DNA of 64,000 bases, from assembly GCA_047967505.1 (NCBI GenBank), contig CM106538.1. One strand, given 5' to 3'. The notes beneath the pieces were generated by a model. That model saw only the letters and a program-made list of their open reading frames with translations. It was not told where the DNA came from and made no database searches. The position numbers and the translations under genes are program-made. Shown piece after piece: positions 5,664 through 35,278 of this stretch (position 1 is the stretch's first letter; each line of letters opens with the position of its first letter). This stretch comes from Dipteris shenzhenensis (lineage: Eukaryota).

Positions 5664-5711
<48 letters not shown>

Positions 5712-5857: not shown

Positions 5858-5899
<42 letters not shown>

Positions 5900-7669: not shown

Positions 7670-9043
7670 GTCTTCCAAAACGTATGGGATGGACACAATA
7701 CTTTGCACACATCTCAACATAGGTTGTATTGACATGTGTGAAAAATATCATGCCCATCGAGTATGAGGGCATTTGAATAACACACCTCAAATACTATTCT
7801 TTGGCAATTGTGCATAACACTTAGTGATAAATGGAGTTTGTGGCATATTTTATGATCCAAAGCATATATGATGGATACTATATTTTTCATGCATCTCTAA
7901 TTAGATGAGATTAACATGTGTGCAAAGCATCGTGCCCATCGAGTATGAGAGCATTCGAATAATACACCTCAGATACTATTTTTTGGCGCTTATGCATAAT
8001 ACTTGGTGAAAAATGGAGTTTGTGACATGTTTGATCATTGAAAGCATATCCAATGGGAATGATATTTTGCACGCGTCTCAACATATATTATATTGATGTG
8101 TATGCAAAGTATAGCACCCATTGGATATGAGGGCATTCGAATGACACACCTCAAAATACTATTTTTTCACTATTGTGCATAGTACTTGGTTTAAAAATGG
8201 CATATGTGGCAACTTTGACCATCTCGAGCATATCTGATGCACACAATACTTTGCATATAAATCAACATAGGTTGTATTGATTAACTTGCAAAGTATCGTG
8301 CCCATCGGGTATTTGCGCAATTGAATAACACACCTCAAAGCGTGTGTTTTTTACGGTTGTGCATAAGACTTGGTGAAAAATGAGGTTTGTGGCGAGTTTG
8401 ACCATCTAAATCATATATGATGGACATGATACATTGCACAATCCTCAACATCTATTAGTCTATTGACTTTTATCAATAGTATCGTATCAGTGGATATGTG
8501 TGTGTTTGAATAACACACCTCAAATACTATTTTTTGATGGTTGTGCATAATACTTGATGGAAAAAGGGATTTGTGGTGACTTTGACCATCAAGAGCATAT
8601 ATGATGGGCATGATATTCTGCACACAACTCAAAATAAGTTGTATTGATGAACTTGCAAAGTATCGTGGCCATTGTATATGTGCCCATTCAAATAACACAC
8701 CTAAAAGAGTGTTTTTTGGTGGTTGTGCATGACACTTAGTGAAAAATGGAGTTTGTGGTGCGTTTGACCATCCAAAGCATATTCAATGGGCACAATACTT
8801 TGCAAAGGCCTAAAAATAGGTTGGATTGACATGAATGCAAAGTATTATGTCCATCCAGTATGTTCGCATTCAAATAACACACCTTAAACTCTATTTTTTT
8901 ACGATTGTGGATAACAATTGATGAAAAAAGCGATTTATGACGACTTTGACCATCCAAAGCAAATCCAATGGGCATAATACTTTGCACACAATAGATTGTA
9001 TTGATGCATGTGAAAAGTATTGTACCCAAAGGGTATGAGAGCA
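7670..9043. repeat. Tandem array of about 182-bp monomers (about 7.5 copies), each with an internal inverted repeat
   Basis: AATAACACACCTC-like motif recurs at about 7777, 7959, 8140, 8325, 8509, 8691 and 8872. Confidence 0.9.
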
Positions 9044-9045
9044 GT

Positions 9046-10665
9046 TACTGGTAGGCTACCTTTTTCTACATGTACATTGTGAATTGCCTTCAGAACAGAT
9101 GTTACAACTTGATTGCTATCATGTAGATGTAAGGAATCAATCCATATGTCTGCAAAAAATGTAAATCCATGCACTAACACTCCACATATGATGTGTCTTA
9201 AAAAGTATTTTCCTTATAGCTTAGGTGGAGTGTTAACGAATCAAGGTAATGCTATATTTTGATCCATACGATCTACAATAATGCACATGTACTCATTTGG
9301 ATGAGAAACAGCTTGCTCCTTCCAAAATGTATATTTTATTCTAGAATGTCGAACAAGTCCATGATAAAATTCTCTCTTTTTTTTGTATGCTTCTTTTTGT
9401 TCTGGAGATGTTGCACTCTCAAGTGCTCCCTTTAAATCATCATAGTCATTGCACTTTGACATTTTTTTCCTCTTTGGGATTTTAACATGTCCAAACCTTT
9501 TTTTCCAAAGAGTATACAAAGTATGAAAAGATGCCAAAGCATGCCCTCTTTGCCTTTGTATTTCTCCAATAAAGTTGAATACTTTTTCTTTTGTCAAACC
9601 TATCGGAAGATGCATTTCAGATAGATGGGGTTGTAGTAAAGCATTTTTATAAATGTAGTCTTTCAAAATTGTTGTTTGCTGCAACCGTTGAGGCTCTTGT
9701 TTTGGGCCTTCCTATGTTTCCATGAATGTTAAATTTTACTCCATACTTTGCTTTATTAGCCAAATTCCAATATGTGCCATGTGATAATCATGTAATAATG
9801 CGATATGCATTATTGCAAATACTTTTCCCATTTATAAGAGGCCTTATATGTTGTCTTGAACTTCACCTTCTCCTATCATTTACAAGAAAGCAAGAGAGTC
9901 TCGTGAGTAAGTATTCATTTCTTCTGCTCCCTCTCCTTTGCCAAACATGTTCTCTACAGCCCTTGATGTCATGTAAGTTAATGAATCGCATACATCTATG
10001 CTTACATCATGTAGATTGCATTGCTTTTAGCATGACATCTTCATTCATTATTCTTATTCTCTTTGGTTGCTTTTCTAGATCTGCGTGGACTTGCTTTCAT
10101 TTCATGCATCTGTATGTTCGTTTTGGGGCCTTCTGTACATCCTTATTTGGATTTGTGCAGTTCTCCTTGTAAGATTTATTTGTCACTTTGTTTTCATGGG
10201 ATGTTGCATCCTTGATCTTATCACTATGATAGTCAAAGTCAAATACCGAATAGTCCTTTGTTGATCTCATCCCTACTTTTGATACATTTGTAGAGCCATT
10301 TGTAACATTAACAATTTCACAGTCAAAGTCAAATACCTTTTTCTATTTTGGTTTCTCAGATGTGTACTGGTGGAACCAGTTGTAATTGGAGCTTTATGTG
10401 ATTATAAGTCTCTTGAGACATAATATAAAACTACTTTTTTTCGACAAAAAAAAAAACCTCCTTTGTTGATCTCACCCCTACTTTTGATACAATCGTAGAA
10501 CCATTTATCACAGTGGCGATAGAGTGTCCAGAATGATCTTTAAACTCATCTATTCCTGAGAGAACATCACTCATTGATGCTCTTTCTATGGATTTCATAA
10601 CTCCATAGTCTTGAAACTCCTCTACTCGAACATCACTCATTATATCCTAGTGCATGACTTCGATA
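9046..10665 (-). pseudogene. Sola-like / DUF7869-type DDE transposase pseudogene, 3' part (truncated); 5' part continues beyond the CACTA insertion
   Basis: Minus-strand fragments: CKHRCMRFI...GKSICNNAY...HGNIGRPK; HLPIGLTKEKVF...LWKKRFGHVKIPKRKKMSKC...CIIVDRMDQNIALP; GVLVHG...HDSNQVVTSVLKAI...GSLP. These recall the D(G)MDQ..LP and VHG motifs of DUF7869/Sola1-like proteins. Assignment by motif memory. Confidence 0.65.
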
Positions 10666-10760
10666 CACTACTACACATGCATCCTATTGCGACGTTTACG
10701 TACCGACAATTAGCATCCGCTTAGCGTTAATCGTCGGTATAAAAATCGGGTGTCGTAAAT

Positions 10761-10880
10761 CGTCGCTATATAGCGACTTTTACTAAGCGTCGCTATATAG
10801 CGACGTTAGTAAAAGTCGCTATATAGCGACTTTTAAAGGTCGCTATATAGCGACACTGAGACACTATATTATAGCGACGT
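10761..10880. repeat. Left subterminal cluster of the palindrome CGTCGCTATATAGCGACG (4 near-full copies + partial)
   Basis: Direct inspection. Confidence 0.92.
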
Positions 10881-11055
10881 TTTACAGAGAGGTTTTTTTT
10901 TTTTTTTAGCCTTAAAATTTATTTTCTTCCAATGACAAAATTTTTTAAATTTTCATACATGTTTGAGCTCATAGAGAATTAAAAAATGAGAGCATGTACA
11001 TCAAGCCTTTGAAGCTCATATATTCATGTCCAAGTTTGAGATGAGAAAAATCAAA

Positions 11056-14000
11056 TTAAATAAGAGCATTTACATCAACTGTTTCATCTTGAGCCAAGTC
11101 TAAGGCGCCAAGCAAGTCTATCTCCAACTCTATACCGAGTTGATCTCCTATATCATCATCGTACTCTAGCATCGTACGTTCACCTAAAAGTATTTGATCA
11201 TCTTCTTCAATTAAGCTTAAGTGTGGTGATTGATCTTGACGATTGTTGTCTTCCTCGTCAATATCGTGATCTCCATCCTCCTCCCGTGCGATGTCATTAT
11301 GCGCATCTTCCTCTTGCCTCATATGGTGATCTACATCTTCTTCGCTAGATTCATCAATTGGATCCGGCATTGGTAGTGGCATCTCCATATCCACATCTCG
11401 ATCTTCAAAAATCTGCTTACTTCGTGGTGCAACTTGGATCACGTACCACCATCTTGGATCAGAACGATCTGGATGAAAAACCACCTATATTGAAGATGAA
11501 AAATCACATGCCAAATGTCGTCAATTATATATATATCAATGGACTTAAAAAACGAAAGCTTCGACTAATTAAATCATTAGTATGCACCTGCTCACAGTGC
11601 TCGGGAAGAACAAAAGTATCACTTTCATCGGTCCAATGTTTGGTGGAGTCTATTGCAAAGAGACCGCTACCATCTTTTCTCACAGTCGCATGGGGACCGT
11701 TGTAAGTAGTTCTAAACCATTTTACATCAAGAATGAAAATAGTAAATCGTCTGAAATCAATTTCATAGATGTCGCGTATGGTTTCACAATAATCCAACTG
11801 TGAGGAGAGAAGATTGGTATCCGAAGCACTTGCTCGGCTATCTTGTGTGAAGTTAGCCATGACTCCACAATCATACGTGACTCTCTTTGAATCGATGCGT
11901 TCTACGCGAAAATGTCATCCATATGACCATAATGCACTGTACTTTTTGTACTGTAAAAGAGCATCATTAAAACAATGAAGATGCACCTATTTTATAGCAT
12001 ATATTGCCACAAATAATTACTTAATTACATCAAGAGATAAGAAACTTACATGCACCATACATCCAGATGATAACTCCCGCTCGCGCTCGTTTATTGTCTC
12101 TCCATCACGTTCGGCTTTACGTATAGCTAGTTGTAGCCAATCAAGTGACATGTGAGTAGGGAGAAGAGCCAGATCTCGTGGATATGGTTGTGATCGCCTG
12201 TACATTACTCTGTATCTCGTCCTTGCATTTATACTTTCTGCTTTGGCCACTTCATATCTCTCAATCCACTTCTGCATCTCAGGGCTATTGAGGATACAAA
12301 ACTTATTGAATTTCTCCATTTGCTCTTCGCTCATCTTTCTTTCAATCCCTTTTCCTTGGGGGACCTCGCCAATGATGCGATCATCATCCTTGTTGTGCCA
12401 AAGCTTGCGGCATATCAGGATCCGTGGATGTAAGAAACTCTGTGATATATACTAATGACTCTTGCACAAGCCATCCCTCTGCCATGCTTGCTTCTGGTCT
12501 TGCTCTTTGTCTTAGAAACCCCTTTAAAGTTTTCATAAACCGCTCGAGAAAAAACATCCATCGATTATGAACGGTACCTGCTATAGCCACCTCATCAACT
12601 ATGTGCACAAGCAAGTGGACTTGAGTTGTCATAATGCTTGAGGGAAAGTGCTTCTCAAGCAAGCATACGGCTTTGATGGATTCCACCCTAGCCTTCTCGA
12701 TGCTCGATATAGAGATCTCTTTTTGAGATATCCACCTATTTCACATGTCCATGCATATGTAAGATATTTGAGATATCCACCTATTTCACATGTCCATGAA
12801 GAAAATACATAATGCGAATTGATAGTAAGCATACCTCACAATACCACAGATCTTGAATATAGCATTTCTAACATCTTCTTATAAGCACCCTTTTATTGTG
12901 ATTGGAAGGATGAACTATCAAAGCAACAATGAAATCATGTCAACAATATAACATAATAATAATTACGCTAATGCATCACTATTATCGGTACACTAATTCT
13001 ACTTAGAATACCTGTAAGACCTTGTGCCAATCATGGGACTTGAGGCCACTAAGCTTATTGTCCTTTGAAAATGGTCCTTTCAAGCAACGCATGTACCCTG
13101 TCGGTGTTTTAAAAGAGGCAATGTCTGCCTTGATCGCTGCCTCCTCCCTCGTAGAGAGGATCCACGTTGCTTTCGGGAGGACAACTTTTCCTGAAGCATG
13201 CACTTGGGGCCACAAACGAGACATCCTATTCATAGCACGCAAGTCTTCTCGCACTCCTCTCGAGTCCTTGGAACCAACCAAGTGTGCCCAAATGGTAGCC
13301 CCCACATTCTTAAAGATATGCATGGGATCCAAGAGATGATTGATTTGTAACTGACCCCAATAAGGAAGCTCGTGAAAGATCGATAGCCTCTTCATACCAG
13401 GAGGAGGTTCCTCTCCATTCTCCCTCCAAGCTTGAATCCAATCACTTGCTTTCAAATATGATGGTGGTGGATCAAGCTGACCTCCACGTGCGAGATGGTC
13501 GAGCGGAAGGTATCGAGCATGACCTTCATAAACATTTTTCCTCATGTGTTTGGAGTAACGTGCAAGCGATTTCAGAGCGGGTCCACAAACAGGACAAGCA
13601 TGGTACCCACTTGTAACAAGCCCTGCACGCATGCATGAATATGTTAGTACAAGACATGCGTGCAAAAGAGAGTAAAAAAAGCATAATCCCTCATTGTACA
13701 TGTAAAGACATAACCACGTACCTGCGCACTCTCCATATCCTAGGTAGTCATGCATGGTCCACATCAAGATACCCCTGACTAAAATATCATTGGTATGCCT
13801 AGGAGCTCTGGAAATATCAAAGACCTGCACTCCTCTCCATAATATCTGTAACTCCTCTATCAAAGGTGCCATGTACACGTCCATGTTTTTTGCCTTGTAC
13901 TTTCCTGGCACAAGTAGTGCAAGCATGAGGTGTCCCTTTTTTATTGTTAGCCATGGTGGGATATTGTAATTCACCACGACTATGGGCCATGTCGACCAAG

Positions 14001-15102
14001 ATGTCGAGCGTAACCCGAAAGGATTCACGCCGTCCATGGCTAGCCCAAGATGTAAGTTGCGTGGCTCTCTCGCAAAGTCCGGCCACTGATTATCTGTGTG
14101 CTTCCAAGCCGTACAATCTGCGGGAATCCTCAATGTGTGATCAGTGGACCGATGAGATGCATGCCATGTCATCAACTCCGCTATGGATTTGCATCGAAAC
14201 ATGTGTTGTATTCTTGCAATGATGGGAAAGTGTCTTAAGACCTTTACCGGTATCCTCTCACCCTGCAAGTCATCTCTATATCGTTGTTCCCCACACTTTG
14301 GACAACTAGCCAAATCTCCATGCTCACGACGAAAGAGAATACAATCATTACGGCAAGCATGGATGGTATCGTAATCCATACCCACCATTGTTAGCATCTT
14401 TTTCGCTTCATCTCTTGATGCAGGCAACATCTTTTGGAGCAACCTATGACAAAGACACTATCCAAATGATGATTCTCAAAACAAACAATATCCAAATAAT
14501 GAGTCAATCAAATTAATGCAAGGGCTAACCTCATTAAGGCCGAGACACTTGTATCCGACCACCCATACTGTACTTGTAGATTCAAGATTGAGAGACAAGC
14601 ACGTAGTTTAGACATCCTGGCACCCTCGTACAATTGTGTTGATTGCAACTCTCACATTTTCACCTCAGACTCTGACATCACGTGTACGTGGGATGTAGTG
14701 CCCCTAAAAATGGAATGCATCATGTCGACCATACCCTCGTCGTCATCCGGGAGACTATAGTCTTGTTGAAAGTGAGAAGGTATATGTGTACCCTCGTCAC
14801 CCTCGTCATCCTATCATAAGCTCATTCGTGTAAATAGAAGATCTTCTAATTCCGGGTATACAATAAGATTGCGAACTTAAATAGCTTTGACTTACCGATG
14901 ATCCATCAACATGTGCAACACCAACGGGGGGTACTGGTTCCGGCTCCTCCCCATACATCCGCAAGTGGCGCATGATAATACAACGTTGATGTCGTACTTC
15001 TCGCTTGCAATGAGTGCAATAACAATATAACCTCTCCGTAAGCCACTTCGTGCTCCCGGGCGTTGGCGCATCATCGGATGAGCTTCCACTCGTCCCTTCC
15101 AT
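11056..15102 (-). CDS. CACTA transposase (TnpD/Tnp2-like), multi-exon, probably carrying lesions
   Basis: IHACRNDCILF...CPKCGEQRY, LGLAMDGVNPFG...STWP, WTMHDY, HLLDPMHIFKNV, GLKSHDWH, HLLVH...RWMFFLERFMKTLK, FVLPEHCEQV; GT-AG introns (e.g. donor at 14895). Confidence 0.92.
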
Positions 15103-15338
15103 CTACACTTATAAAACCAAAACATAAGCATGAAGAGGAGATGTACACAATTATGAGCATAGCATGTTTAATTTGAGCTTCTCTTGAGGCTATATAAAAA
15201 GAATGACGTCCCTATATAGTAAGGATTGAAACAAAAAATCCTATATAGTAAGGCTATGTAGTAAGAGGAGATATTGACAATTATAGGCATAGCATGTTTG
15301 AGCTTCACAAGAGGCCACACCAAGAAATAAACAGTAAG

Positions 15339-15471
15339 CGTCGCTATATAGCGACGCTCTGTTCCGTCGCTATATAGCGTCGATTTTAATTTAAAACGTC
15401 GCTATATAGCGACGCTTTAAATAAAAAACGTCGCTATATAGCGACGAATAAGCGTCGCTATATAGCGACGC
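15339..15471. promoter_or_regulatory. Internal cluster of 5 CGTCGCTATATAGCGACG palindromes between the divergent CACTA genes
   Basis: Same motif as the subterminal repeats; a regulatory role is inferred from position only. Confidence 0.7.
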
Positions 15472-16359
15472 TGTGGGTTAAAACCCGAAATGCCAAAACC
15501 CGCGGCGTTTTGCTCAAAGCTTTCCTAATCTCTCAAGTAAGCTCCCCAAAATCTCCTCCCACCTATTTTCACTGACCTCCCATCTATTCCAAGCAACCTC
15601 CTACTCTATTTCCCACTCCTCACCCTTCTCCTACCTCTTGTGCACCCTCTCTCTCCTTTTTCCCTCTTTGGTTTCCAGAAAGAAAGTTCTTCAAAAGGTG
15701 AGTTTCTTTCAACAATGTAGGTTGTTTGTTTGTTAGCTTTGGTTTTGTGAGTGTTTCTACTTGTATTGCTAAAGTTTTAAACTAGTTTTCATGCTTGATT
15801 AGAAAGGATTCAAACAAAAAACGAAATTTCAAGAAAGAAAGAAAGAAACTCACCTCTTCTTCCTGTATTTCTCTTCCTTCTCTTCCTTCTCTTCTCCTCA
15901 ATCTCCTCCTTTCCTTGTCTCCTCAATCTTCTCTTTCCTTGTCTCCTTTCAAGAAGTTGCTTTTGTGATCTCCTCTTTCCACTAACATCTTATTTGAAAA
16001 AATGGGTTGTTTTCTCTCTTTTGTAGGGCCAGTCCACTACACCGAGCGGGACATACTCTCTCTTTTGTGGGCCCAGTCCACTACACCGAGCGGGACATAC
16101 TTTTGCAGGTAAGTGCTTCCTCTTCTTTCCATTTAAGCTTTTTGTTATTTGCATTGGCCTGCAGCTAGCGCCTTAAGCGCTAGCTGCAGTGATGGGCGTA
16201 GGAACCCTCTCTTCCCCCTTCTCTTTTTCTCATTTTTCCCCCTTCTCTTTTTTCCCTCTTCTCTTATTCTCTCTTTCCCCCTTCTCTCTTTCCCCCTCTC
16301 TCTTTTCCCTTCTCTCTTTCCTTTCCCCCTTATTCTCTATTTCCTTTCCCTCTTATTCT

Positions 16360-17490
16360 CTTATGCTTATGCTTCTCTCATTCCCCCTTCTCTATTTCCC
16401 CCTTCTCTCATTCGCACAAGCTCTTTTTCTGCATAAGCTCCTTCTCTTTTTCCGCATGAGCTTATGCTTATGCTTATGCATAAGCATAAGCATAAGCATA
16501 AGCATAAGCTCATGCTTATGCTCATTCATGAGAATGAGCTTATGCGTAAGTTTCCGCAAGAGCTTATGCGGAAATAGAGAATGAGAGAAGCATATGCTTC
16601 TCTCATTCTCTTTTTCCGCATAAGCTCCTTCTCTTTTTCCGCATGAGCATAAGCATGAGCTTATGCTTATGCTTATGCATAAGCATAAGCATAAGCTCAT
16701 GCTTATGCTCATTCATGAGCATGAGCTTATGCGTAAGTTTCCGCAAGAGCTTATGCGGAAATAGAGAATGAGAGAAGCTTATGCTTCTCTCATTCTCTTT
16801 TTCCGCATAAGCTCCTTCTCTCTTTCCGCATAAGCTCCTTCTCTATTTTCGCATGAGCATAAGCATGAGCTTATGCTTATGCTTATGCTTAAGCATAAGC
16901 ATAAGCATAAGCTCATGCTTATGCTCATGCATGAGCATGAGCTTATGCGCAAGTTTCCGCATAAGCTTATGCGGAAATAGAGAATGAGAGAAGCTTATGC
17001 TTCTCTCATTCTCTTTTTCCGCATAAGCTCCTTCTCTTTTTCCGCATGAGCATAAGCATGAGCTTATGCTTATGCTTAAGCATAAGCATTCCGCATGAGC
17101 TTATGCTCATGCATGAGCATGAGCTTATGCGCAAGTTTCCGCATAAGCTTATGCGGAAATAGAGAATGAGAGAAGCTTATGCTTCTCTCATTCTCTTTTT
17201 CCGCATAAGCTCCTTCTCTATTTCCGCATGAGCATAAGCTCCTTCTCTCTTTCCGCATGAGCTCCTTCTCTCTTTTCGCATAAGCTCCTTCTCTATATCC
17301 ACATGAGCATAAGCATGAGCTTATGCTTATGCTTATGCATAAGCATAAGCATAAGCTCATGCTTATGCTCATGCATGAGCATGAGCTTATGCGTAAGTTT
17401 CCGCATAAGCTCCTTCTCTTTTTCCGCATGAGCATAAGCATGAGCTTATGCTTATGCTTATGCATAAGCATAAGCATAAGCATATGCCTA
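16360..17490. repeat. Palindromic ATGCTT/AAGCAT satellite with about 180-215 bp higher-order units, inside a predicted intron (16109-17547)
   Basis: Hairpin GCGGAAATAGAGAATGAGAGAAGC..GCTTCTCTCATTCTCTTTTTCCGC recurs at about 16568, 16755, 16971 and 17153. Confidence 0.9.
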
Positions 17491-17549
17491 TGAGAATGCT
17501 CATGTTTGTTTATTTGTTTTCTGTTTTCGTGTTTGTGTCTATGTTAGAC

Positions 17550-19114
17550 ATGGGATCACGTCGCTCATCGGACGAGTACGGACAGCCTCGCAGGAGGAGA
17601 GCTCACGATCTATATGCTCCAGAGGACTTTGATTCCTCTCAGGCGACTACCCCGAGGACTACCCCTGGTCCGACTCCTCTCGGTCCTAGCACTGTGACTA
17701 CCCCTGGTCCGACCCCTCTTCCACGTAGCACTGCGACTACCCCTCAGGGGACTCCTTTGCTAGCCGCGCATGGCTTTGTTGGGACTCCCGACGAGTTTGT
17801 AGCGCAGATGAGCGATGAGGAGGCAGCGAGATTCTTCTCTCTGCTCTCTCAGAGGACCTCCGCAATTCCTTCCCCTACACCGATGGGTGGACGTACAGCC
17901 CAGCCATCCCCTCGCGCCCCTTCGACCGCGGGATCATCACCTGCGCATGCCTCCCGCAAGGGAAGGAAGAGTAGGATGGGCGGCTCATGTTGTGCTGACT
18001 CAGGAGATGTAGACGAGTCAGCACACTCACGCTCCTTTAGGTCTCCACTTGGTCCGGAGACACAGTATCAGTCAGGTCCCTTTCCCTCTAGCTACTCCTC
18101 GATCCGGAAGCGGTCGCGCAGCTTCCACTCCTTCAGACTCTGCTACCGTCAGTCCCCCTTACTCATCAGGGGATCTCTCCTATCAAATCACATCTGCCAG
18201 AGAGATAATAGAAGACAAAAAGGGCAAAGCAGTGATGGCCGCCATGAGGCGGTTGATGAGTCATCACTTCAAGAGCGGCATAAATATCGATTGGTGGTAT
18301 CAAGATGCCCAAAAGAAGCAGGCGGTGATCGATGAGTTAAAACACAGATATCCTAATCCGCCAAATGTGGAGTTTAATAACAGTTATATGCTCGAGCGCA
18401 TGGGTTTGGTCCTAAAGCATCGCAGATCAACCATGCGTACTTCCATTACAAAGGGGTTGGCTAAATCCAGCTGGGCAGACAAAGCTGATTGGAAGTACTT
18501 CAAGAAGCAACATAGGGACCATCCCGAAATGTTCGAGGGTCAGAGGAGGGCTGCGAAGAGACGGCTGGACGTCGTAGGTACTTCGCACTTTGGTGCAGGC
18601 AGACGGTATGCGTTCGAGGCAACCGTGGTAAGTTTACTTCTTTCCATTTAATGTATTGTTCTATTTGCTTTACTTACATATTACATGCACTTTAGCTAAC
18701 TCTAACTCTCGTAAATTGGATCCACAGCAAGCTGCGATGGGTCGTCTTCCTATGGATACAGAGATGCGGCGCGCATTTCGGATAGGAACCAAGCTGTGGT
18801 TCATTGAGCAGGAGGCAATGGGAGCGACAGTCGATTGGGCTGAGGTGGCTACTCGCATGGTATAAGTTTACTCCTACTTGTAATCTCACTTTTTAATTTA
18901 AGTTCCAATCTAATTTTCAATTTATATGGTTCACTCTTAGGGTCAAAGCTCAAGCGTCCCATCATCAGAGACGAGCGATCAACAGGGGCAAGGATCGGAC
19001 GTAGGTGCCGAGGACGAGGGAGAAGACGCAGGTGTCAGGGACGAGGGAGAAGATGCAGGTGCCGAGGACCAGGGAACAGCCCAACAAGACGATTCGGATT
19101 CGGATTCGGATTAG
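17550..19114 (+). CDS. CACTA second gene (TnpA/ORF2-like accessory protein), 3 coding exons, one apparent frameshift near 18050
   Basis: ATG at 17550 after acceptor TTAG; introns at about 18628-18728 and 18860-18940 (GT..AG); Pro/Ser/Thr-rich N-terminus, basic helical core (W..FKKQH..P...GQRRAAKRR...SHFGAG), acidic C-terminal tail ending at TAG 19112-19114. Confidence 0.7.
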
Positions 19115-19390
19115 TAGTGGTAGTAGCATTTTGTATATCCGCTCGTTAGAGCAATTTTGTATCGCCCTTTCACAGGGTAATTTTGTTTCAAACACAGTTG
19201 TATATGTATATGCATTTCTTCCTCATCGTTCACAAGAACAATTTTGTATCACCCTGCAAGCAAGGGAAATTTTGTTATAAAAAACTTTCTTTTGTAATTA
19301 CAAAAAAAAAAAAAGGGTTAGTGGGGCTAAACAGGGCCAAAAGGAAGCCCTGTTTAGCCCCACTAGCCCTTTTTTTTAACTTCTGTTAAT

Positions 19391-19590
19391 CGTCGCTATA
19401 TAGCGACGTTTACCAGTGTCGCTATATAGCGACGATTATCAGAGTCGCTATATAGCGACGTTTGCATCGTCGCTATATAGCGACGTTTGCATCGTCGCTA
19501 TATAGCGACGATTAACAGTGTCGCTATATAGCGACGGTTTATAGCGACGCTCCTTTTTCGATGATTTTAATGACTTTTATAGCGACCTTT
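19391..19590. repeat. Right subterminal cluster of CGTCGCTATATAGCGACG palindromes (6 near-full copies + partials)
   Basis: Direct inspection. Confidence 0.92.
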
Positions 19591-19669
19591 GCGCCCGTGA
19601 AAAAAGAAATTTTTAATGTAAAAAGCGTCGGTATTTCCGTCGGAAAATGGCCTATGCCTTGTAGTGATA

Positions 19670-20840: not shown

Positions 20841-20980
20841 AGAAAATTAGTCTCTTTTTGATAATCTACTTTATTAATTATTTAGAAATCTAGATCTTGT
20901 TTAGAAAATATGGGAGGTCTTATTTAGAAATTCGGGTTTTCAATAAAGGATTTAGGATCTAGTAATTAGCAATTTCCTAG

Positions 20981-21452
20981 ACCCAAACCCTCTAAACCCT
21001 ACACTTTAAACTAAACCCTAAATTCCAAAGCCTTAATTCAAAAACTCTAAACCCTAATCCTTGCTCTTTAAACCCTAAACCCTAATGTTGGCTCTCTAAA
21101 TCATAAACCCTAAATCTAAGCCCCAACCCCTAAATCCTAAATCCTAATCCCTAAACCCTAAGTCCTAAACCCTAACCCCTAATCCCTAAACCCTAAACCC
21201 TAATTCTAAACCTCAAAACCATAAACCCTAAATCCTAAAATCTAACCCCTAAACCCTTAAGGCCTAATCCCTAAACCCTAAACCTTAAATCTTGAACCCT
21301 AACCCCTAATCCCTATACCCTAATCCTAGCCCTCGATCCCGTAAACCCTAAATCTTAAACCCTAACTCCTAATCCCTAAACCCTAACCCTTAAACCCTAA
21401 ACTCTAACCCCTAACCCTTAAACCCAAATCCCTAATCCCTAAACCTTAATCC
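20981..21452. repeat. Interstitial degenerate telomeric array (CCCTAAA/CCCTAA)n
   Basis: Dozens of CCCTAAA variants over about 470 bp. Confidence 0.92.
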
Positions 21453-21454
21453 AA

Positions 21455-22722: not shown

Positions 22723-23074
22723 GGTTGGAGTGGGAGTGGGAGAGGGAGTGGTAGTGGGTTGGAGAGGGGAAGGTGTGAAAGAACAATGGAAGAGTAGGTA
22801 CTTGGATGGAGGGGCCAATGGGAGAGGAGATAATATGATGGAAGGGTCAATGGAGTGGAGACAATGAAATGTAGGAACCAATGAGAGAGAAGCACTTAAA
22901 ACCCTAGTTTTTCTTATATATACTCTCCTCCTCTCATTCTTTCTCCCATTTCAACAAGGAAGAGCAAGAGGAGAAGCAAGAGGAGGATCAAGAGTAAAAG
23001 CAAGTACAACTACATGATTCAATCCCAACTTTCTTCCATGTATTTTCTTTAAATTTTCTTCTTTGAAATTTTAT

Positions 23075-23459
23075 TCTAGAGAGAGAAAGAAGAGAGAGAG
23101 AGAGAGAAAGGTGGAGTGAGAGAAAGAGGGAGGGATGGGAGATGTAGAGAGAGAGAGGAGAGCAAGGAGGAAGTCACGCTGCCGTGGTAGCGCACAAGAG
23201 AGAGAGAGGGAGAGAAGGAGAGGTAGGTAGGGAGAGAGAGAGAGAGAGGCGGACATGAGAGAGAGAGAGAGGCACAGGAGAGGAGGGAAGGAAGAGAGCA
23301 AGAGAGAGAGGGAAGTCACGCTGCGAGAGAGAAAGAGAGGCACACAAGAGGAGGGGAGGCTTAGAGAGAGAGAGAAGAAATTCGTGCTACCACGGCAGCG
23401 CACAAGAAAGAGAGGGGGGGAGAGAGAGAGAGAGAGAGAGGTAGATAGGGACACAGCTG

Positions 23460-23501
<42 letters not shown>

Positions 23502-23758
23502 GCAAGGGAGAGGAGAGGAGAGGGAGAGAGAGAGGGGTGCATGAGAGCAGAGGAGGCATAGACAGAGAAAGGAGAGGGAGGAGGAGGTCGCGTTGCCACA
23601 ACAGCGTGCAACGCACACACATACACACACACATAGAGAGAGAGAGAGAGAGTGAAACATAAAGAGAGAGAGAGAGAGAGGAGAGAAGAGGAGAGGGGAG
23701 GGAGGGGAGAGAGTGAGAGAGAGGAAGGGAGAGAGAGCATTGCTGCAACAATGCACGC

Positions 23759-23804
<46 letters not shown>

Positions 23805-23843
23805 AGGGAAAGAGTGCTGCTATTGCGGTAGCGTGCATGCACG

Positions 23844-23880
<37 letters not shown>

Positions 23881-23949
23881 GCAGATGAGAGGGGAGAGAG
23901 AGAGAGGGAGAGAGAGAGAGGAAATGAAGAGGAGAGGAGAGAGAGAAGT

Positions 23950-24000
<51 letters not shown>
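23075..24000. repeat. Interrupted (GA)n microsatellite-rich tract
   Basis: Direct inspection. Confidence 0.93.
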
Positions 24001-24003
<3 letters not shown>

Positions 24004-24869
24004 TTAATCATGACATTCATGCACTATGAAAGATCACTTTCACTTTAGATATGTTGCTCAAAGATAGGACCATATGGAGAGCTTTTAATTCTCCTATGAC
24101 CACTAAAAGAACTGCTACTAAAGTGGAAGCCAAAAATCTTGTTGACTTTTGTACATGCTTGTGATAAAAGACAGAGGTGATGGCAAGCTTTAAGATAGTA
24201 AGGGACAAGTATCAAGACTACACAAGCATACTTTTCCATAGTGATGAAGTTTCTGATCAAATAACAAAAGTTTGTCTTGCATATGAAAAGGGAGATGTTG
24301 CATATGAGGCTCCATCATTTATTAAAGACAAAACAATTTAACATCTAATTCAGGTATGTAACATTGGTACCCATTTTAAGATTCCCTCAGAAATTCATTA
24401 AAATTATAACTTTTTCAAAAAAAGGTCATATTTTGCGTAGTGAAATTTTCAAAACTTTTTAAATTCTGTCAATTTTGGTACATAATGCCCGCAAATTAAT
24501 AAGGACCTCAACTACAAAACACAATATCAATGTATTTAGAAAACTTAGAAAGTGTAAGTTTTTTCCTTCCTTTGACCTTTTATTTTCGATAGAAAAACTA
24601 CATGATACAACTTTCATTCTTGCGTGTAGTAACATAACCTTATCAAAATTCTTAAGTTAAACTTTGTAGTATCACATAAACTACTGAAAGAATAAAAAAA
24701 TATCATCAAATTAATGGGAAAAAGTAAATGCCTCCTTCAAAACATTCAACGCATATGGATTCTCAAATGTCTTAAGAACACTTGTCTATTGAAACAATTT
24801 AGAATCACAAAATTATCAATATAATTCCATAATTGGAGTCTACTCAATTTTCCCATATGTGTCATCTAC

Positions 24870-27800
24870 ATCATCTTCATAACCATCCCCAACAACAAAT
24901 TAATGGGAAAAACTAAATGTTCAAAACATTCAAAGCATATGGATTCAACTGCAATTACATTTCGGCCCTTTTTTAAGGCACATGCTGTGACTGTGCTTGA
25001 ACCAACAACAAATAGATCGAGTATCCACTCATGCTCATTTGAAAATAGATCTATGAGCTGATTAATTGGGAGTTGTGGTTTTTGATAAAGGATTTACTAT
25101 CTCCCCATTCTTAGCTATGGTCACATGCCTAAGCTTCTTCGTCACAACTGGAATAATGAAATGATCACGAGCAAATGGAGCAAATGAAGGAAAATTGATG
25201 TGACCAATACTTTTTTTTCCATTGACAGACCAATACCCAACTAAAATGTTTTCTGTAGCAGATGTGAATCGATGTCCTTTCATTTGTCTCACATTGGGTT
25301 TCATCCTACCACATGCAACAAAAATAAGATTTAAATTTATCAACAGAATGACACTCATCACTGCCCCAGACTGCAAGTCTTAATGAAAACTTACGACACG
25401 CCAAAGTGTTGCCATCGTAATTGACATGAACTGGTCAAGAAGATCATTAGTTCTTTGTCTTTGTAAGGGACCTCATCAAAGGTGGATCCGGGAACATTAA
25501 ATCCATATGGTATGTCTGCAACAATGACCAACGTGTACTCATTATTTGGAACTATCTTTAACAATTCATTGCAATCTCCGGTGAGCACATGATAAAAGTT
25601 TGTTGGATGGTTTTCTCCCCTTTCAAACTCTAACATGTCATCACTAACAGTGATAGATTGTTGTTGCGTTTGATGCTCTTTTTCTTTTGCAGCCCGGTCA
25701 ATCAATTGCTTAAAGCTTGCAAGCATCATACTACTCTTAGATCCCTTCTTGCTTCATTTCTGAAGGTTGTTGTCAAAATAACAGTTCGATATTTTGAACA
25801 TTTCAAATCTAGAATTTGAAAGAAAATTTCCATTAACATATGTATACCAAATTTGACATACCATGCTTTTGAATACATTGAAATATGGAGCCAATCTCTC
25901 CATCCTACTACTCTCTGGATATTCCTCCCAAACAACATCCCTATCTAGCATGTTCAATTGCCGGATCATTGCTATTTGCATTCTCATGTATATTTTATGC
26001 CTGCATTGAAAACACATGTATAATTCATCTCAATTTTATAGTTGAAACAAAGTCTATTGAAACATTATTTGTTGTAAAGATATTAATGTAAAATCAAGGA
26101 GAGATATGATGCAAAGGAGAGAAGTTTACTTACTCATCAAATTCATTGCCCATTTCATCCAAAGAGAGATCCCTAGACACCACTTTGCCAAGCACAGACT
26201 TAATTATAATCTCATCATTAATTCCTTGCATGCTCTTCCATGTTGTGGCTCAAATCTCTTCAGGTAATGCCTTCAAGGTCTGGGTTTCTTTCTTGACTCC
26301 TTCAGGAATGAGTTTTTTCTGCCCTTTGATTTCAAAATTCTCCCACTTTGAAAAAGTTGCATTTATTTGATCCCAAACTTTGCCACTACAAAATGCAATT
26401 TGAAACATCCCATCCCATGATCTGAAGCTGTCAGTTGGCCTTGACGGATCTTTATTGTTTCAGAAATCCTAGCCTCATTCAACAAAGACAAGCGAAACTC
26501 GAGCGATCAAAGAATGTTCCTCTTTGAGTTTGGTAACGAACTCATTATGATAGAATCCAAGACATGGACTTCCTATAGTCATTGTCGTTATTGTGATCAA
26601 AAGCCAGTAAGTTTGCCTTCGCATTAGTCAAACCAGCATAAACTGTTCAATTACATGTCATGTAATGAGAGTTGCATGGAAAATCAATATTCAACTGCCT
26701 TTTTTCCTCTATTGAATGGGAGCCTCCAAGAACAATGTAGTTATAATCATTTGCTTTTTTACGATCAAAAGATGCCTTGTCAGAACAATCTTTTGGATCC
26801 ATGAGCACAATGTAGTTCACAACTTGTGCATGTGGATTGTCCTTCATTTCGTGTCTTCAAATTCTCAATATGGAAAGGATTTATTGCGTGCACCTCTAAT
26901 GGCTGAAGGCCAGTGCTAGGATCAATAGGAGGTCTGATAACATGATTGATGTGCAAGAAGAAAGTATGTCAATCCACAAGGTTATCTCATTGTACCTTTT
27001 CATGGACTCTATTTTGATGTGTATATGAGGTGCCATATCCAATATCAGCTCCTAGTACTTGTAGCTCACCACTAGTTGGGATTTCAATGATATCCAATGG
27101 TTGTACTCTCCTTGGATCCTTTGATCCCGGTTTACTCTGTTTTTCACTTGTGCAATAGATGAGAGTCTCCTCAACAACATCCTCATAAGACTCTAGAGGA
27201 AATGCACTTGCAGCCAATAGAGGTCATTTTTTAGGGTGCGGTGCGCTCAAACCATGCCCACTTGGGGGTGCACTCAATCCGTGATGGCCTGAAAGAGAAG
27301 ATGCTCTCAATCCATGTGAACCTGTGGGAGTTCTTAATCCTTGTGTACTAGAGCTAAATTTTACAGCTTCAACACAGGAAGATCCCTTTCCTTTTGATTT
27401 TGAAGAACCTATTGGTTTGATTGGTGATGTTGTGGTATCTTCTTCATAACCCTCCTCTATATGCTCCTCAGAATCACTATTGGAAGTTGTACCTCCATCT
27501 CCTTGATTATTTCATCAACCTCCACAATTTGATTTATCAAGTGATAAATAAGATCCTAGACACACAAAACAAAATTGAATCTCATAGTATTTAAAAGAAA
27601 ATTACCTAAACATAGAAAATTAGAAATTACTTATGGATAGTAACTAACCTTCCCTTCTTCTTTGATTTGTTTTAATTGTTCCACTACAACAGGTGGAGTA
27701 ATAGCTTTCAAAGAGAAATTCTCCTCTATAACAATACAAACAATAGGTTTTCTATTGTTATCAATCCCAAGCATTTCAACACTTTTCTCATTGGACTCAC

Positions 27801-28669: not shown

Positions 28670-28788
28670 TTTTGATGATCGAGAAATTCTCCCATGGCAA
28701 CCATCTAATAGTACATCATGGCTAGACGATGATGTATATGACCTCCTACGCTAGGCTAGGCTACCAGAGCAAAGTTGGGTGTATGTGC
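28670..28788. repeat. First unit of a 160-bp tandem array interrupted by copia A
   Basis: AAATTCTCCCATGGCAACCATCTAAT...GGTGTATGTGC, continued at 34672. Confidence 0.85.
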
Positions 28789-31700
28789 TGAGAGTGCTCT
28801 CAATGGAAGCAAGAACAGAAGAAGGAGAGAGAGAGAGAGAGGGAGACAGAGAGCCACACAAGTTTTGGTGGGTGCAGAACCACCCTAATCTTCTTTTTCA
28901 TTCATTTATATATATGTGTTTGAGTATTGTACATAACTAGGGTTAAGGCACAGTGACCTCTAACCCCACAACCTCCCACTTAAAGGACAATGTGCCTTTA
29001 AGGGAGAACAACTAGTGAGCATACTATCCAATGCCCATCAATACACGACAATACTCAAACCGCTGACTAGGTAGACTCTTCGTCAGCATATCTGCAGGGT
29101 TATCATCTATATGAACCTTGACAAGCTCTATGCGCTTGTCCTCAAGTACCTCCCTGATGAAATGGTACCTGACCTCAATGTGTTTGGTCTTTTGCATGAA
29201 AGACCGGATTCCGTGCTAGCTGAATAGCACTCATGGAATCACTATGCAATGTTGGTACACCTGTATGAATCCCCAAATCTCCCACTAGCCGATCAAGCCA
29301 TATAGCCTCCTTGCAACCCTCTGTGGCTGCAACATACTCAGCCTCTGTGGTAGACAAAGCAACGCACTTCTGTGTGCGAGACATCCACGACACTGCACCA
29401 CCTGCAAAGGTGAACACATAACCAGAAGTGGATCTCCTACTATCCACATGCCCTGCATAGTCTGAATCTGTGTACCCAAGTACACGCATGTCTCCTTTAC
29501 CAAAGAAAATGCACATCTCCTTGGTACCCTTCATGTACCTCATGATGCACTTAACTGCCTCCCAATGCCTCTTTCTCGGATTAGCCATATACCGGCTAAC
29601 AACTCCCACTGCAAATGCAATGTCTGGTCTAGTAGCTATCATAGCATACATAAGACTCCCAACTGCTGATGCATAAGGAACCATGGCCATCATGGCCTTT
29701 TCCTCATCTGATTTGGGACTATCTGTATGACTCAGTTTCACATATGGAGGCAATGGAGTACTCACTGCCTTCCCCCCCTCCATATTGAAACGTTGCAATA
29801 CTTTTGTAACATACTCTTTTTGTGAAAGCCAAAGGAGTTTCCTACTCCGATCACGCATGATGCACATACCAAGAATATGACCTGCAAATCCCAAATCCTT
29901 CATATCAAAGGCCTCATGCAACTTGGCCTTTAATGCATCTAGCTCATAAGTATTCTTGCTAGCCAATAGCATATCATCCACATATAGTGCCAGGATTATC
30001 AGGCTACTATCTTTACCCCTTTTAGTGTAGAGGCAGTGTTCAATTTCACTCCTTCTAAAACCCTGGGACCGAATGAAAGCATCAAACTTCTGATACCATT
30101 CTCTAGGTGCTTGCTTAAGACCATAGAGACTCTTCTTCAGTTTGCAAACTAAATGCTCTTTGCCCTTTTCTTCAAAGCCTTCCGGCTGCACCATGTAAAT
30201 TTCCTCATGCAAATCCCCATGCAAGAAAGCTGTCTTGACATCCATTTGCATAAGCTCCATATCCTCTACTGCCACTAGTCCAAGCATGCATCTAGGTGTG
30301 GTCATCTTCACAACCGGAGAGAATATCTCATCAAATTCCACACCCTTCTCTTGCTTGAACCCTTTAGCAACCAATCGGGCCTTGTACCTAGGCACATCAT
30401 CACCTGTGACCTTCATTTTGTAGACCCATTTACATGGCAATGCTTTCTTTCCATGTGGCAAAGAAACCAAGTCCCAAGTCTTATTCTTCATAAGTGAACT
30501 CATCTCTGATTGCATAGCATACTCCCACTTGTGTTGATCCTCATGCATCATAGCCTCTTTGTAGCAAGAAGGCTCCCCGCAATCAGTAAGCATCACATAG
30601 TCTACCCCTGGAACAAACCTATCAGGCGGTCTAGACACTCTAGATGATCTTCTCAATGGCATTTCAGCTTGCTGTCCCACTTGCATATCAGCCACATTTG
30701 GCTCATCATTTCCACCAATAGATGATCCATCATCTACCCTTGATTGTATATTTGTGGGAGTAGTTGGTGGTACCATTTCTTGCACATTTGGTGCATGGAC
30801 AGCTTGCTGTCTATCAACATATGCAGGTGGATTCACATCCTGGAAAGTGATTCTCCTCATTTCCACATCCCTCATGGGTGCCTTATGCATCTTCTTCTCA
30901 TTGAAGACCACATCATGGCTGCGTATGATCTTCTTTGCTTCTGGATCCCAGAGACGATAGCCCATCTCTCCACTTTCACCATAACCTAGAAAGATGCATT
31001 TCCTAGACTTAGGATCTAGCTTCTCTCGAAGCTCTTTTGGCACATGTGCATATGCCTCACACCCAAATATACGCAAATGAGAGTAAGAGGGCTTCTTTCC
31101 ACTCCATGCCTCTTCAGGAACCACCATCCAAACGCTTACTAGGTGATCTATTGATCACATGCACTGCAGTCTTCATTGCCTCAGCCCAAAAACCACGAGA
31201 AAGACTTGCATTGGAAAGCATGCGTTGCAACCTTTCTTGAATGGTACGGTTCATCTTTTCTGCAACTGGATTTTGCTCTGGAGTATGAGGGGATGTGAGC
31301 TCCCTCTTAATCCCACGTGTATCACAGAAATGCTAAAAGTCATGAGAGAGATACTCTCCACCATTGTCAGTCCGTAGGCATTTAAGCGTTCTACCTGACT
31401 GATTCTCAACCAAGGCCAGCCATTTCTGAAATACCTGGAACACATCACTCTTCCGAGCTATAGCATAAGCCCACACTTTCCTAGTTGCATCATCAATGAA
31501 TGTCACATAGTATTTAGCCCCGCCTAATGACCGTGTAGGCATGGGACCACATACGTCTGAATGCACCAAATCAAGCATTTCAAACTCTTTCTTTCCCCTT
31601 CTTTTATGGGCTGATTTAGTCTGCTTCCCATAGAGACAATGCTCACAAAATTCAAAATCAGAGAAATTCAAATGCGGTACATAACCCAAATGGCATAAGA

Positions 31701-34671
31701 GTTTCATTCCATTCTGGCTCATGTGCCGCAACCTGCAATGCCACAAAGAAGTGCTTGGCTGCTCGGTTATTGCAACAACATGATCAAATACCCCTGATAC
31801 ATGTAAGGGATACAAAGTCCCACACTTGGCACCCCTGGCCAAAAGCATAGAGCCCTTCTGAATTTTCCAACTTTGAAAGCCAAAAGTGGTGTGAAAACTA
31901 GCATCATCTAGCTGACCCACTGAAATAAGACTCTTGGTCAGCTTAGGCACATGTCTCACATGTTTCAAAACAAATGCAGACCCATGTGCAAAAGAAAACT
32001 TTATGTCACCTACTCCCACTATGTCACATGCATAGTCATTTCCAAGATGCACACAACCTGTCTTTCCACTATCATAAGTGGAGAACCATTCCCTATGGGG
32101 AGTAACATGGAATGAAGCACCAGAATCCAAAATCCAATCCTGGGAATATGCATCATCTGAAGTGGTAAGCAACTCTGCAGATAAACTAGACATGAAGAGA
32201 ATGTCATTGTCACTATCATGTGTGACTGCATTGATCTCCTCGATCTTCACTTTTCCTTTGTCCTCCCTTGGACTCTCTTCCTTTTGATTTGCACCCCAAT
32301 TTGCATTCTTTTTCTTATCCCTTTGCTCTCTTTTTAGCTTGTAGCAATCCTTTTTCATATGGCCCTTCTTGCCACAATGGTAACACTCAATGTTCCGTGC
32401 CCTGGATTTGCTACATGACTTCACTCTTTCTTGGGACTTCCCCCTGAACTGTGATCTGCCCCTTTGTTGCCATCCATAGACTTCTGTCTAATCTCCTCGG
32501 CCAACAAGCTACCCACAACATCATCAAATTTCAGTACTCCACCAGGTGCAGAGTTACTAACAGCTGTACGGAAGGTATCCCATGAGGATGGCAATGAACA
32601 TAAGAGAAATATTGCCTTAGTCTCCGCATCAAAATTCATTTTCTGAGCCTAAAGTTGGTTGAAAATAATATTGAATTCATTCAAGTGAGAAGCAATGGAG
32701 ACCCCTTCCTTCATCTGCAGCTCAAACAACTTGTTCATGAGGTAAACTTTATTAGAGGCAGTTTCCTTCTCATAAGTGGCACACAGTTTTTTCCATAAAT
32801 CCTCCGTAGTCTGCTCATTTACTACTGTGAAATAAACTGACTCTGCAAGATGAAGTCTAATAGTAGACTTTGCTAATACATCCAACTCATTCCAATCATC
32901 CTCAGACATATCTGCAGGCTTAGCTTCAATCCCTGCCAAGGGTTTAATCTGCTTCTTTTGAATAAGCACATCCCTTATTTGTTCTTTCCACAAAGAAAAG
33001 TTTGTCCCATCAAACTTTTTAATGCTGAAAAACTCCTTTTCAGACATGGAAGAGGATGCCATGATGCAAATAAAGCAAAATCCCAAATGCTAGTGCCTGC
33101 AAGAGAGAATCACACCAAATACTAGGTGCACCCAAATGTGTATGCCACAATAGTGTGAAATATCACCAAAACTCAAAGCTCAAAGCATCAAAAGATGCAT
33201 CTGACTCATGTGCATATACTATGCATCCATATGAGCAAATCTGGCCCAAAATAAAATGCCAATAAGTGCCAAATGACATTGTCCACTGGCATATGCATCA
33301 ATAATGTCTCATCCAAGAGAGCATAGCACTATCAGTGCATCACCAACAATGTGTCAAAGCTGTCCGTCAGCATAAAATATCATCCATGTGCAAAGCGTCC
33401 ATAAAAAATAGCATCCCACAAGGCAATTTGGGCCTATCAGTGCATTCAACAAGGACCGCAATGCATCCAAATGGCCTATAAATCATCCACTGCAACCCAA
33501 TGCATACCGCGAATGAGCGCACACTGCTCAAACTGCAACCAGAGTGATCTGCATAAGGTATGCTCAAGAAATCATAATCCCACGGTAATGAGCGCTACTG
33601 AAAATAGAACTTGAGATGCTTCAAAACATGGGCGCCATTGCATAATCGGACTCAACAAGAAAATCTGCAAATATCTCTCTTTTGCTAGAACTCCAAAATC
33701 CCAACCGATGAGTGAGAAATGGGAGTCAATACTTATCCACTGCCATGTGGCATAAATCTAAGGTTTCAAAACCTTAGTATGAAAAATGCATAACAGAGAC
33801 ACGAAATCGAATACACAGAGATTTATAACTCTGAAAATCCTTCACCGAATCGCGCAAGAACTGATAGGTAGGGGTTTTTGGGCATCCGGAACGCAATGGG
33901 ACAGACGGTTTTGGAAACCGTGGTCTCAATCATTGGGTCGAACACACGGACTGAAAAACGTTTTTTGAAACAGAGCTATCTGTAAACTCCACCGGAGTGC
34001 GAATGATGAGCAACATAGAAGTTTTAGGACCTCCTGAGTCCATTGGAACTGACAGATCTGCAAATGGTTGCTCCAAACTTGAGTTCCAACACCCGGGCAA
34101 AAAACGCAGAAACTGACACAGTGAGTCAGAAATCCAATGAAATGATCCCAGATTTAAGAATAAAGGTGTTTCCAGGCTCTTGAAGTAATGTGGACACCAA
34201 AAGCAAGCAATAGTTGCCTCTACAAGTCAATACGGAGTCTCTGTCATCGAACGGAACAGGGAAAAGCTCAAAAAACGACTTTTTCTTTGAAAGCTCTTAA
34301 CAGGCTCTCAAAACCATTTCGCAAAGCCAAAGTGACTTTTCCAAATGTTCCTCCAAGGTCTCTGCACACTCGGATGCAAGTAAAGTCGCCCACAAAGCTT
34401 CCCACAGAGCTTCTCCTTCCTCTCACAGAGCTGCTGAGCTTCAAGCATTCACGCACGCTCAGCTAGATCACCCGGGCTTTGATACCAGTTGAGAGTGCTC
34501 TCAACGGAAGCAAGAACGGAAGAAGGAGAGAGAGAGAGAGAGGGAGACAGAGAGCCACACAAGTTTTGGTGGGTGCAGAACCACCCTAATCTTCTTTTTC
34601 ATTCATTTATATATATGTGTTTGAGTATTGTACATAACTGGGGTTAAGGCACAGTGACCTTTAACCGCACA
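28789..34671 (-). mobile_element. Full-length Ty1/copia LTR retrotransposon, family A (5883 bp)
   Basis: 182-bp LTRs at 28789-28970 and 34490-34671 (5 mismatches counted); TSD TGTGC on both sides; PBS TGGTATCAAAGC (tRNA-iMet type) at 34476-34487; PPT at 28971-28982. Confidence 0.97.
29025..33062 (-). pseudogene. gag-pol: copia A gag-pol (gag, CCHC, protease, integrase, RT, RNase H) with stops and frameshifts
   Basis: KFDGTNFSLWK, CYHCGKKGHMKKDC, WILDSGASFH, VHSDVCGP, LRTDNGGEY, QMDVKTAFLHG, LYVDDML and TDSDYAG, spread over ORFs 32649-33086, 32421-32639, 31333-32424 and 29175-31127. Confidence 0.95.
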
Positions 34672-35278
34672 TGTGCCACCACTCCTCCCTCCTCATTCCA
34701 TTGAATTATTATGATATTCTTGGCTCCGATGATCGATAAATTCTCCCATGGCAACCATCTAATCACACATCATGGCTAGACGATGATGTATATGATCACC
34801 TACACTAGGATGGGCTATCAAAAAAGCTGGGTGTATGTGCCACCGCTCCTCCCCCCTCATCCCATTGAATTATTATGATCTTGGCTCGGATGACTGAGAA
34901 ATTCTCCCACGGCAACCATCTAATTGCACGTCATGGCCAGTCGATGATGTATATGACTGCCTACGCTAGGCTAGCTACTAGCAAAGCTAGGTGTATGTGC
35001 CATTGCTCCTCCCCCCTCATCCTATTGAATTATCATGATCTTGGCTTCGATGACCAAGAAATTCTAGCATGGCAACCATCTAATCGCGCGTCATGGCTAG
35101 ACGATGATGTAGATGACTACCTACACTAGGCAAGAAAATCCAACTGGTGGATTGTGTGCTCTTAGCATCGATAGGCACCCAAAGTTGCACATCTAACACA
35201 AGATCTTGGCTCTGATGATCAAGAAATTATAGCATTGGAACCATCTAATCGCATGTCAGGATGATGTAGATGACTGCT
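34672..35278. repeat. 160-bp tandem array (about 4 further units, decaying rightwards)
   Basis: AAATTCTCCCATGGCAACCATCTAAT-like motif at about 34738, 34899, 35059 and 35224. Confidence 0.88.

Follow-up and report, generated by a model that had tools for sequence, protein, structure and literature searches.

Relics of an amino-methyltransferase and a DUF7869-type transposase in Dipteris shenzhenensis point to a DNA transposon family that carries its own DNA methyltransferase

We analysed a 64-kb stretch of contig CM106538.1 of Dipteris shenzhenensis (the window), in which a decayed DNA methyltransferase gene, a partial duplicate of that gene and a fragment of a DUF7869-type transposase lie between two tandem arrays at positions 7670-35278. 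A preliminary description had interpreted this region as a single large Sola/DUF7869-type DNA transposon with the methyltransferase as cargo, into which a CACTA element, a miniature inverted-repeat transposable element (MITE) and a copia retrotransposon had later inserted. On re-checking, the anatomy that it gave (arrays, duplicate, methyltransferase relic, CACTA, MITE and copia; Table 1) proved largely real. Taking out the three younger insertions leaves about 12.46 kb by arithmetic from the coordinates, in agreement with the 12.5 kb claimed, and within this length the methyltransferase, its duplicate and the transposase fragment are all encoded on the minus strand.

The main methyltransferase copy is a pseudogene of the beta class of amino-methyltransferases. 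One of its open reading frames (ORFs; 24869-25093) passes the Pfam threshold for N6_N4_Mtase (PF01555), scoring 28.5 bits where 26.7 are required (E 1.8e-6), and the copy keeps the permuted motif order of its class, with motif IV (ADIPYGF, at about 25500) followed by a degenerate S-adenosylmethionine loop (DLFVVGSST, at about 25000). Its first intron, with GT..AG borders, occupies the same codon position as in an intact gene on a metagenome contig, L087, that is described below. The main copy is interrupted by at least four in-frame stops and five frame changes. The duplicate comprises only the N-terminal and middle domains, without the catalytic half, and has six in-frame stops; with both copies broken, there is no intact methyltransferase reading frame in the window. 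The window methyltransferase is dead and is silent on present activity. A telomere-like array starts exactly where the duplicate stops, a junction that may record the healing of a break or an episode of repair.

The second gene relic is homologous to an intact 829-residue DUF7869 protein of contig L087 (P0044; 181 bits against PF25273), which we used as the reference for the window fragment. In a tblastn comparison the fragment aligns with residues 166-362 of the 829 (E 3e-14, 23% identity) across two stops, and residues 41-98 of P0044 align weakly with the window (E 0.24). The Pfam DUF7869 profile itself gives a match to the fragment that falls below the cut-off (E 0.0013, 18.7 bits against 26; profile positions 8-60 of 192). 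The assignment to DUF7869 is therefore made on the homology to P0044, which extends beyond the Pfam domain by about 150 residues on the N-terminal side, and not on the Pfam score. The catalytic core, which in P0044 includes the regions ..QLDN..ENKN and ..GHTHDHIDQ, is absent by tblastn and Pfam from the window and from both flanks of the region (3600-7700 and 35200-39000, both strands). What had been described as a transposase gene is thus a 5' fragment that lacks the second and third catalytic regions, covering residues 41-362 or so and representing the N-terminal 40% or so of the protein.

We searched 1.84 billion representative proteins exhaustively with the window's own methyltransferase reading, in which stops were written as X, and obtained 32 relatives at E<=1e-3; word-based protein searches with single window exons returned no match. 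By Pfam, N6_N4_Mtase is present in 19 of the 32 relatives, and ParB_N and DUF7869 domains are present in none. The ten best full-length relatives come from Ginkgo biloba, the fern Adiantum nelumboides, the liverwort Riccia sorocarpa and, for the remainder, Logan, ENA or JGI contigs. The methyltransferase is thus a member of a rare plant family. In Ginkgo the family is multi-copy, with five paralogues of 58-95% identity. A tree of the N-terminal domain places the two window copies in a clade of their own, whose branching relative to Ginkgo and two metagenome clades the tree does not resolve.

Family members share a motif IV of the form D-[I/A/V]-P-Y/H-G, followed by ..DLFSGSGTT, so that motif IV precedes motif I as in the permuted arrangement of the beta class; the first proline of the canonical motif IV (D/N/S-P-P-Y/F) is substituted throughout. 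In profile comparisons the nearest solved relatives are N6-adenine enzymes of the beta class, namely M.MboIIA (4e-9), DpnA (4e-8), RsrI (5e-8) and CcrM (1e-7), with N4-cytosine enzymes scoring more weakly (0.003 and above). Judged by motif IV and these profiles, the enzyme would methylate an amino group outside the base ring, with N6 of adenine the likeliest target, although N4-methylcytosine (4mC) is also a possible product; the paper on the rotifer enzyme N4CMT cautions that this domain does not reveal whether A or C is modified (PMC8885841). On a more distant, higher-GC, eukaryote-like contig (L134; features at 522-851, 1372-2393 and 3079-3540) there is a relative whose motif IV is the canonical DPPF and whose N-terminal domain contains GGNHTR, and this contig also bears an additional, incomplete methyltransferase copy in inverted orientation.

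Conservation in the N-terminal domain is strong, as at Y-x-Y-x-V-x-G-G-x-H-S and L-L-A-x-D-H-N-x-D, and by eye the domain looks ParB/Srx-like. The preliminary description had labelled it ParB, a label that no tool bore out. Pfam scans of the window and the relatives gave no match to ParB_N (PF02195), two PDB profile searches gave no match for the domain, its ORFs had no PHROG match, and a scan of viral contigs for the domain lent ParB no support. Alignment of the domain with one phage ParB by hhalign, a single and underpowered comparison, gave a probability below 0.3%. The sole domain signal was a weak one for DUF6551 (E 0.002-0.004), in two of five sequences.

We scanned metagenomes with the methyltransferase alignment and recovered 80 loci, of which 37 contigs are clear relatives (L081-L117, all but one of 31-42% G+C). 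Among these, L087 is a plant-like contig of 9353 bp that starts inside the left terminal inverted repeat (TIR) of an element of about 8.64 kb. The element holds an uninterrupted DUF7869 ORF and an intact, intron-bearing methyltransferase gene, arranged head to head and both inside the inverted termini (Table 1). The palindromic repeats between the two genes (AACTCGATACGNCGTATCGAGTT) are candidate protein-binding sites or a candidate bidirectional promoter region. The right terminus is common to five contigs (L087, L090, L097, L114 and L125), whose flanks part after about 8631-8633; a terminus that recurs with different flanks in this way has, on comparison of the sequences, the character of a mobile element's end that occupies more than one locus.

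Within L081-L117, L087 is the only contig that contains a full-length methyltransferase together with more than 2.8 kb of upstream sequence, and there the transposase is present (one of one informative contig). These observations support the view that the methyltransferase family travels inside DNA transposons of the DUF7869-transposase type. The earlier proposal of a DNA transposon with its own DNA methyltransferase therefore holds for the family, through L087 and the shared terminus, but not for the window as one bounded element.

On balance, we think that the window region probably derives from this methyltransferase-carrying family of cut-and-paste DNA transposons, as one dead and rearranged relic or as two that lie side by side. 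Coincidence is unlikely because a rare methyltransferase relic lies 12.5 kb from part of a transposase of exactly the kind with which it is associated elsewhere, and we infer a common origin of the two fragments. In the autonomous form, divergent genes for a DUF7869-type transposase and for a beta-class N6_N4 amino-methyltransferase would lie between inverted termini of at least 26 nt. The transposase would cut and paste the element at these termini, and the methyltransferase would act on adenine, or possibly cytosine, amino groups of the element or of nearby DNA. Such methylation might serve as a mark against cytosine-methylation silencing or might couple transposition to replication. Decay in the window would then have broken the methyltransferase, cut its second copy by telomere-like repeats, reduced the transposase to its N-terminal part and removed the termini, with CACTA, MITE and copia inserting into the relic later.

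A bolder form of this proposal seems doubtful to us as a whole. It would hold that autonomous transposons of land plants (liverworts, ferns, Ginkgo and the source of the window) use an intron-bearing beta-class enzyme to write their own N6-methyladenine (6mA) or 4mC. The N-terminal domain would load at palindromes as ParB does at parS, and the marks would shield the element from 5-methylcytosine (5mC) and RNA-directed DNA methylation or would time its transposition.

Several observations weigh against deriving the window relics from such a transposon. There is no TIR or target-site duplication (TSD) in the window. Linkage of the two genes within one TIR-bounded unit is seen in a single contig, L087, which belongs to a clade separate from that of the window; because the window copies form their own clade, the L087 architecture need not hold in the window's lineage. 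The window genes are co-oriented with the transposase downstream, whereas those of L087 stand head to head, and the window transposase is just 23% identical to that of L087. A DUF7869 gene lies downstream of the methyltransferase in none of the six contigs that have at least 2.6 kb of sequence there. Other methyltransferase copies adjoin unrelated genes, namely a Mutator-like element (L106), a leucine-rich-repeat gene (L111) and a dehydrogenase gene (L097); L097 and L111 have long upstream flanks, but their methyltransferase copies are 5'-truncated. Separately, weak tblastn signals for a downstream transposase in L082 and L089 (E 0.016-0.27) fell in AT-rich sequence with no Pfam match and were rejected.

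The same phenotype of adjacent relics could also arise if the methyltransferase relic and the DUF7869 fragment came from two unrelated insertions and are neighbours by chance, which we regard as unlikely but as deserving serious weight. The whole window, with a G+C content of 34-47%, is a plant-type transposon graveyard: Pfam matches of ORFs across the 64 kb are confined to copia, gypsy and CACTA domains and to the methyltransferase and DUF7869-like genes, all of them transposon-derived; no Pfam-detectable host gene occurs among the ORFs anywhere in the window, and neither do tRNA genes or Rfam matches. That no host gene intervenes between the two relics, to which the preliminary description had pointed, is true but carries no weight, because in a window without a Pfam-detectable host gene such adjacency is the rule and is uninformative. 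A chance origin would also fit the gene order, which is unlike that of the sole intact element, the low transposase identity and the failure to find common termini, and a telomere-like array, the MITE and the CACTA element lie between the methyltransferase and transposase pieces. How probable such an encounter is would depend on how many DUF7869 elements the source genome contains. However, the methyltransferase family is very rare in the protein search, the one informative case has exactly this type of transposase as carrier, and both pieces and the duplicate are found on one strand within 12.5 kb.

The original proposal, in which one large element spans 7670-35278 with its genes in tandem and the 160-bp and 182-bp arrays as subterminal repeats, would account for the co-orientation of the genes and for the array found at each outer edge. 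PMC10741241 describes Sola elements that reach more than 15 kb and whose TIRs vary greatly. Nevertheless, we consider this proposal highly improbable. We aligned one end against the other, searched the sequence left after removal of the nested insertions for matches to its own reverse strand, and searched the whole window with candidate termini. These three comparisons reached the same outcome as the preliminary description, which had itself failed to find TIRs or a TSD: no TIRs exist between the proposed ends, the best candidate being a 15-mer inside coding sequence (E 0.05-0.2), and no TSD is definable there. Moreover, the transposase alignment ends at residue 362 (position 9082), which leaves about 90 bp between it and the 182-bp array, and tblastn and Pfam detect no transposase sequence beyond that array.

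The arrays themselves show no similarity to each other (best E = 4), and they are local satellites, not subterminal repeats of an element as had been suggested. The 160-bp array sits upstream of the methyltransferase gene in the minus-strand sense, and 160-bp units on both sides of copia indicate that copia is nested in this array. Units of the 182-bp array contain hairpins with arms of 27-36 nt and about 80% complementarity, suggesting that this satellite may have originated from a MITE-like palindrome. A CGATAC core common to these hairpins and to the L087 palindromes occurs at about chance level (p ~0.03 by our own estimate) and was set aside.

Giant-virus relics have been reported in liverwort, fern and Ginkgo lineages. 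N6_N4 methyltransferases are typical of phages, and ParB fusions are enriched in prophages in the data that PMC12704722 presents on them, but it is extremely improbable that the window methyltransferase stems from a decayed host gene or from an integrated virus rather than from transposon cargo: its spliceosomal introns are conserved, it has multiple, decayed paralogues, a mobile-element terminus recurs in five contigs with the transposase inside the same TIRs in L087, and viral contigs match C-terminal methyltransferase segments only (best-segment identities 24-58%) and never the N-terminal domain. The methyltransferases of those viral contigs are of a distant phage type, some in tandem pairs, with a ParB fusion in none of the 14 ORFs checked, and no relatives of the DUF7869 transposase were found in viral contigs.

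The ORFs of the CACTA element match Transposase_21 (E 1.5e-51) and DUF4218 in Pfam. An 18-nt palindrome, CGTCGCTATATAGCGACG, occurs in this element in three clusters, at both ends and at one internal site (10762-10882, 15337-15473 and 19364-19551); given the internal cluster, CACTA may be two joined or nested units. An internal CACTA satellite at 16421-17492 consists of 182-216-bp units of GCATAAGC-type motifs. Two long purine-only, low-complexity blocks (AG-rich and G-rich) show extreme GC skew; they are located just left of the region (5515-6416) and inside it (23070-24003). To the right of the region, two 179-bp tandem arrays (41184-41567 and 44720-45119) lie left of gypsy-type ORFs at about 46700-49750. 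The consensus units that TRF gives for these two arrays appear to be mutual reverse complements, and 22-bp repeat pairs at 40701, 46037 and 49967 bracket the region of the arrays and gypsy-type ORFs.

Table 1. Features of the window and of the metagenome contig L087. LTR, long terminal repeat.
Sequence	Feature	Position	Strand	Basis or details
Window	182-bp tandem array	7688-8990		7.1 copies, 73% matches
Window	DUF7869-type transposase, N-terminal fragment	10051-9082	-	tblastn against P0044, and Pfam
Window	CACTA element	10664-19666	-	CACTA..TAGTG ends; 3-bp TSD ATA
Window	hAT-like MITE	20450-20696		8-bp TSD TAGAATTT; second copy at 40321-40565
Window	Degenerate interstitial telomere-like (CCCTAAA)n array, ~470 bp	20976-21449		Abuts cut end of methyltransferase duplicate
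Window	Partial methyltransferase duplicate	21449-22723	-	Against 25943-27199: 91.7% over 1280 bp, direct orientation
Window	AG-rich low-complexity block	23070-24003		Between methyltransferase pseudogene and duplicate
Window	Beta-class amino-methyltransferase pseudogene	~27139-24944	-	Colinear with Ginkgo proteins, metagenome relatives and the L087 gene
Window	Single unit of 160-bp array, left of copia	28674-28788		
Window	copia LTR retrotransposon	28789-34671	-	TG..CA ends; 182-bp LTRs 97.3% alike; TSD TGTGC
Window	160-bp tandem array	34671-35131		2.9 copies, 84% matches; partial unit to ~35258; part right of copia taken as 34672-35278
L087	Perfect 26-nt inverted repeat	1-26 and 8595-8620		Encloses both ORFs
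L087	DUF7869 ORF, uninterrupted, 829 codons	387-2873	-	Pfam E 1.8e-53
L087	Palindromic repeats, ~10 copies, 22-26 nt (AACTCGATACGNCGTATCGAGTT)	3649-4100		Between divergent genes
L087	Methyltransferase gene, intact	4441-7706	+	Four canonical introns

6mA has been reported in plants, but these reports are disputed. According to PMC4738411, few DNA adenine methyltransferases are presumed to occur in land plants. In the literature that we searched, which left supplements, most subscription journals and Repbase outside its scope, we found no DNA transposon with a methyltransferase of this kind and no paper naming DUF7869. If our proposal is true, the family would provide a concrete, testable source of amino-methyl marks in plant genomes, and it would be a new case of mobile elements manipulating host epigenetics, hitherto described for retrotransposons. 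The window copy is of value because it led to the family; L087 supplies an enzyme and termini that are open to direct test.

In bacteria, Dam controls transposition of IS10/Tn10 and Tn5, and maize Ac prefers hemimethylated DNA; in these cases methylation of the ends or the promoter ties transposition to replication, and the methyltransferase is an enzyme of the host. By analogy, a methyltransferase encoded by the transposon itself could possibly follow a logic akin to that of Dam and Ac, in which transposition is coupled to replication.

The closest parallels to the enzyme are the N6_N4 methyltransferases of phages and prophages, which are often fused to a ParB-CTPase-fold domain (PMC12704722 and PMC4738411). 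Like the present family, they have the PF01555 domain with its beta-type permutation, are preceded by a further, DNA-associated domain at the N terminus and have a mobile carrier. In contrast to them, the present family is eukaryotic, with spliceosomal introns, a plant distribution and a TIR transposon as its carrier, and a ParB domain is unsupported by the tools that we used. The bdelloid rotifer N4CMT (PMC8885841) is likewise an intron-containing eukaryotic enzyme whose permuted N6_N4_MTase domain is of the kind found in bacteria or phages, and it is given there as having no eukaryotic homologues. However, N4CMT is a domesticated host gene fused to a chromodomain, whereas the present family is transposon-borne and has a different N-terminal domain.

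Among carriers, Sola transposons, including Sola2 with Fanzor1 cargo, are similar in that they measure 2-9 kb, end in TIRs, encode a large transposase and can carry a passenger gene; the passages on them in PMC10741241 and PMC3627910 place Sola in the moss Physcomitrella and describe it as uncommon in flowering plants. In its size (8.6 kb) and TIRs the L087 element falls within the published Sola range; Sola is a candidate affiliation of the family. DAM-LTR elements and the DIRS1 methyltransferase, as outlined in the corresponding parts of bioRxiv 10.64898/2026.05.21.726589 and PMC4738411, are further instances of eukaryotic transposable elements with a prokaryote-type DNA methyltransferase that presumably acts on the element's own chromatin. 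Those elements are retrotransposons with Dam-like or PCIF1-like domains, found mostly in unicellular eukaryotes, whereas the present family joins a beta-class N6_N4 enzyme to a cut-and-paste DNA transposon in land plants. Both sources describe transposon-borne methyltransferases for retrotransposons.

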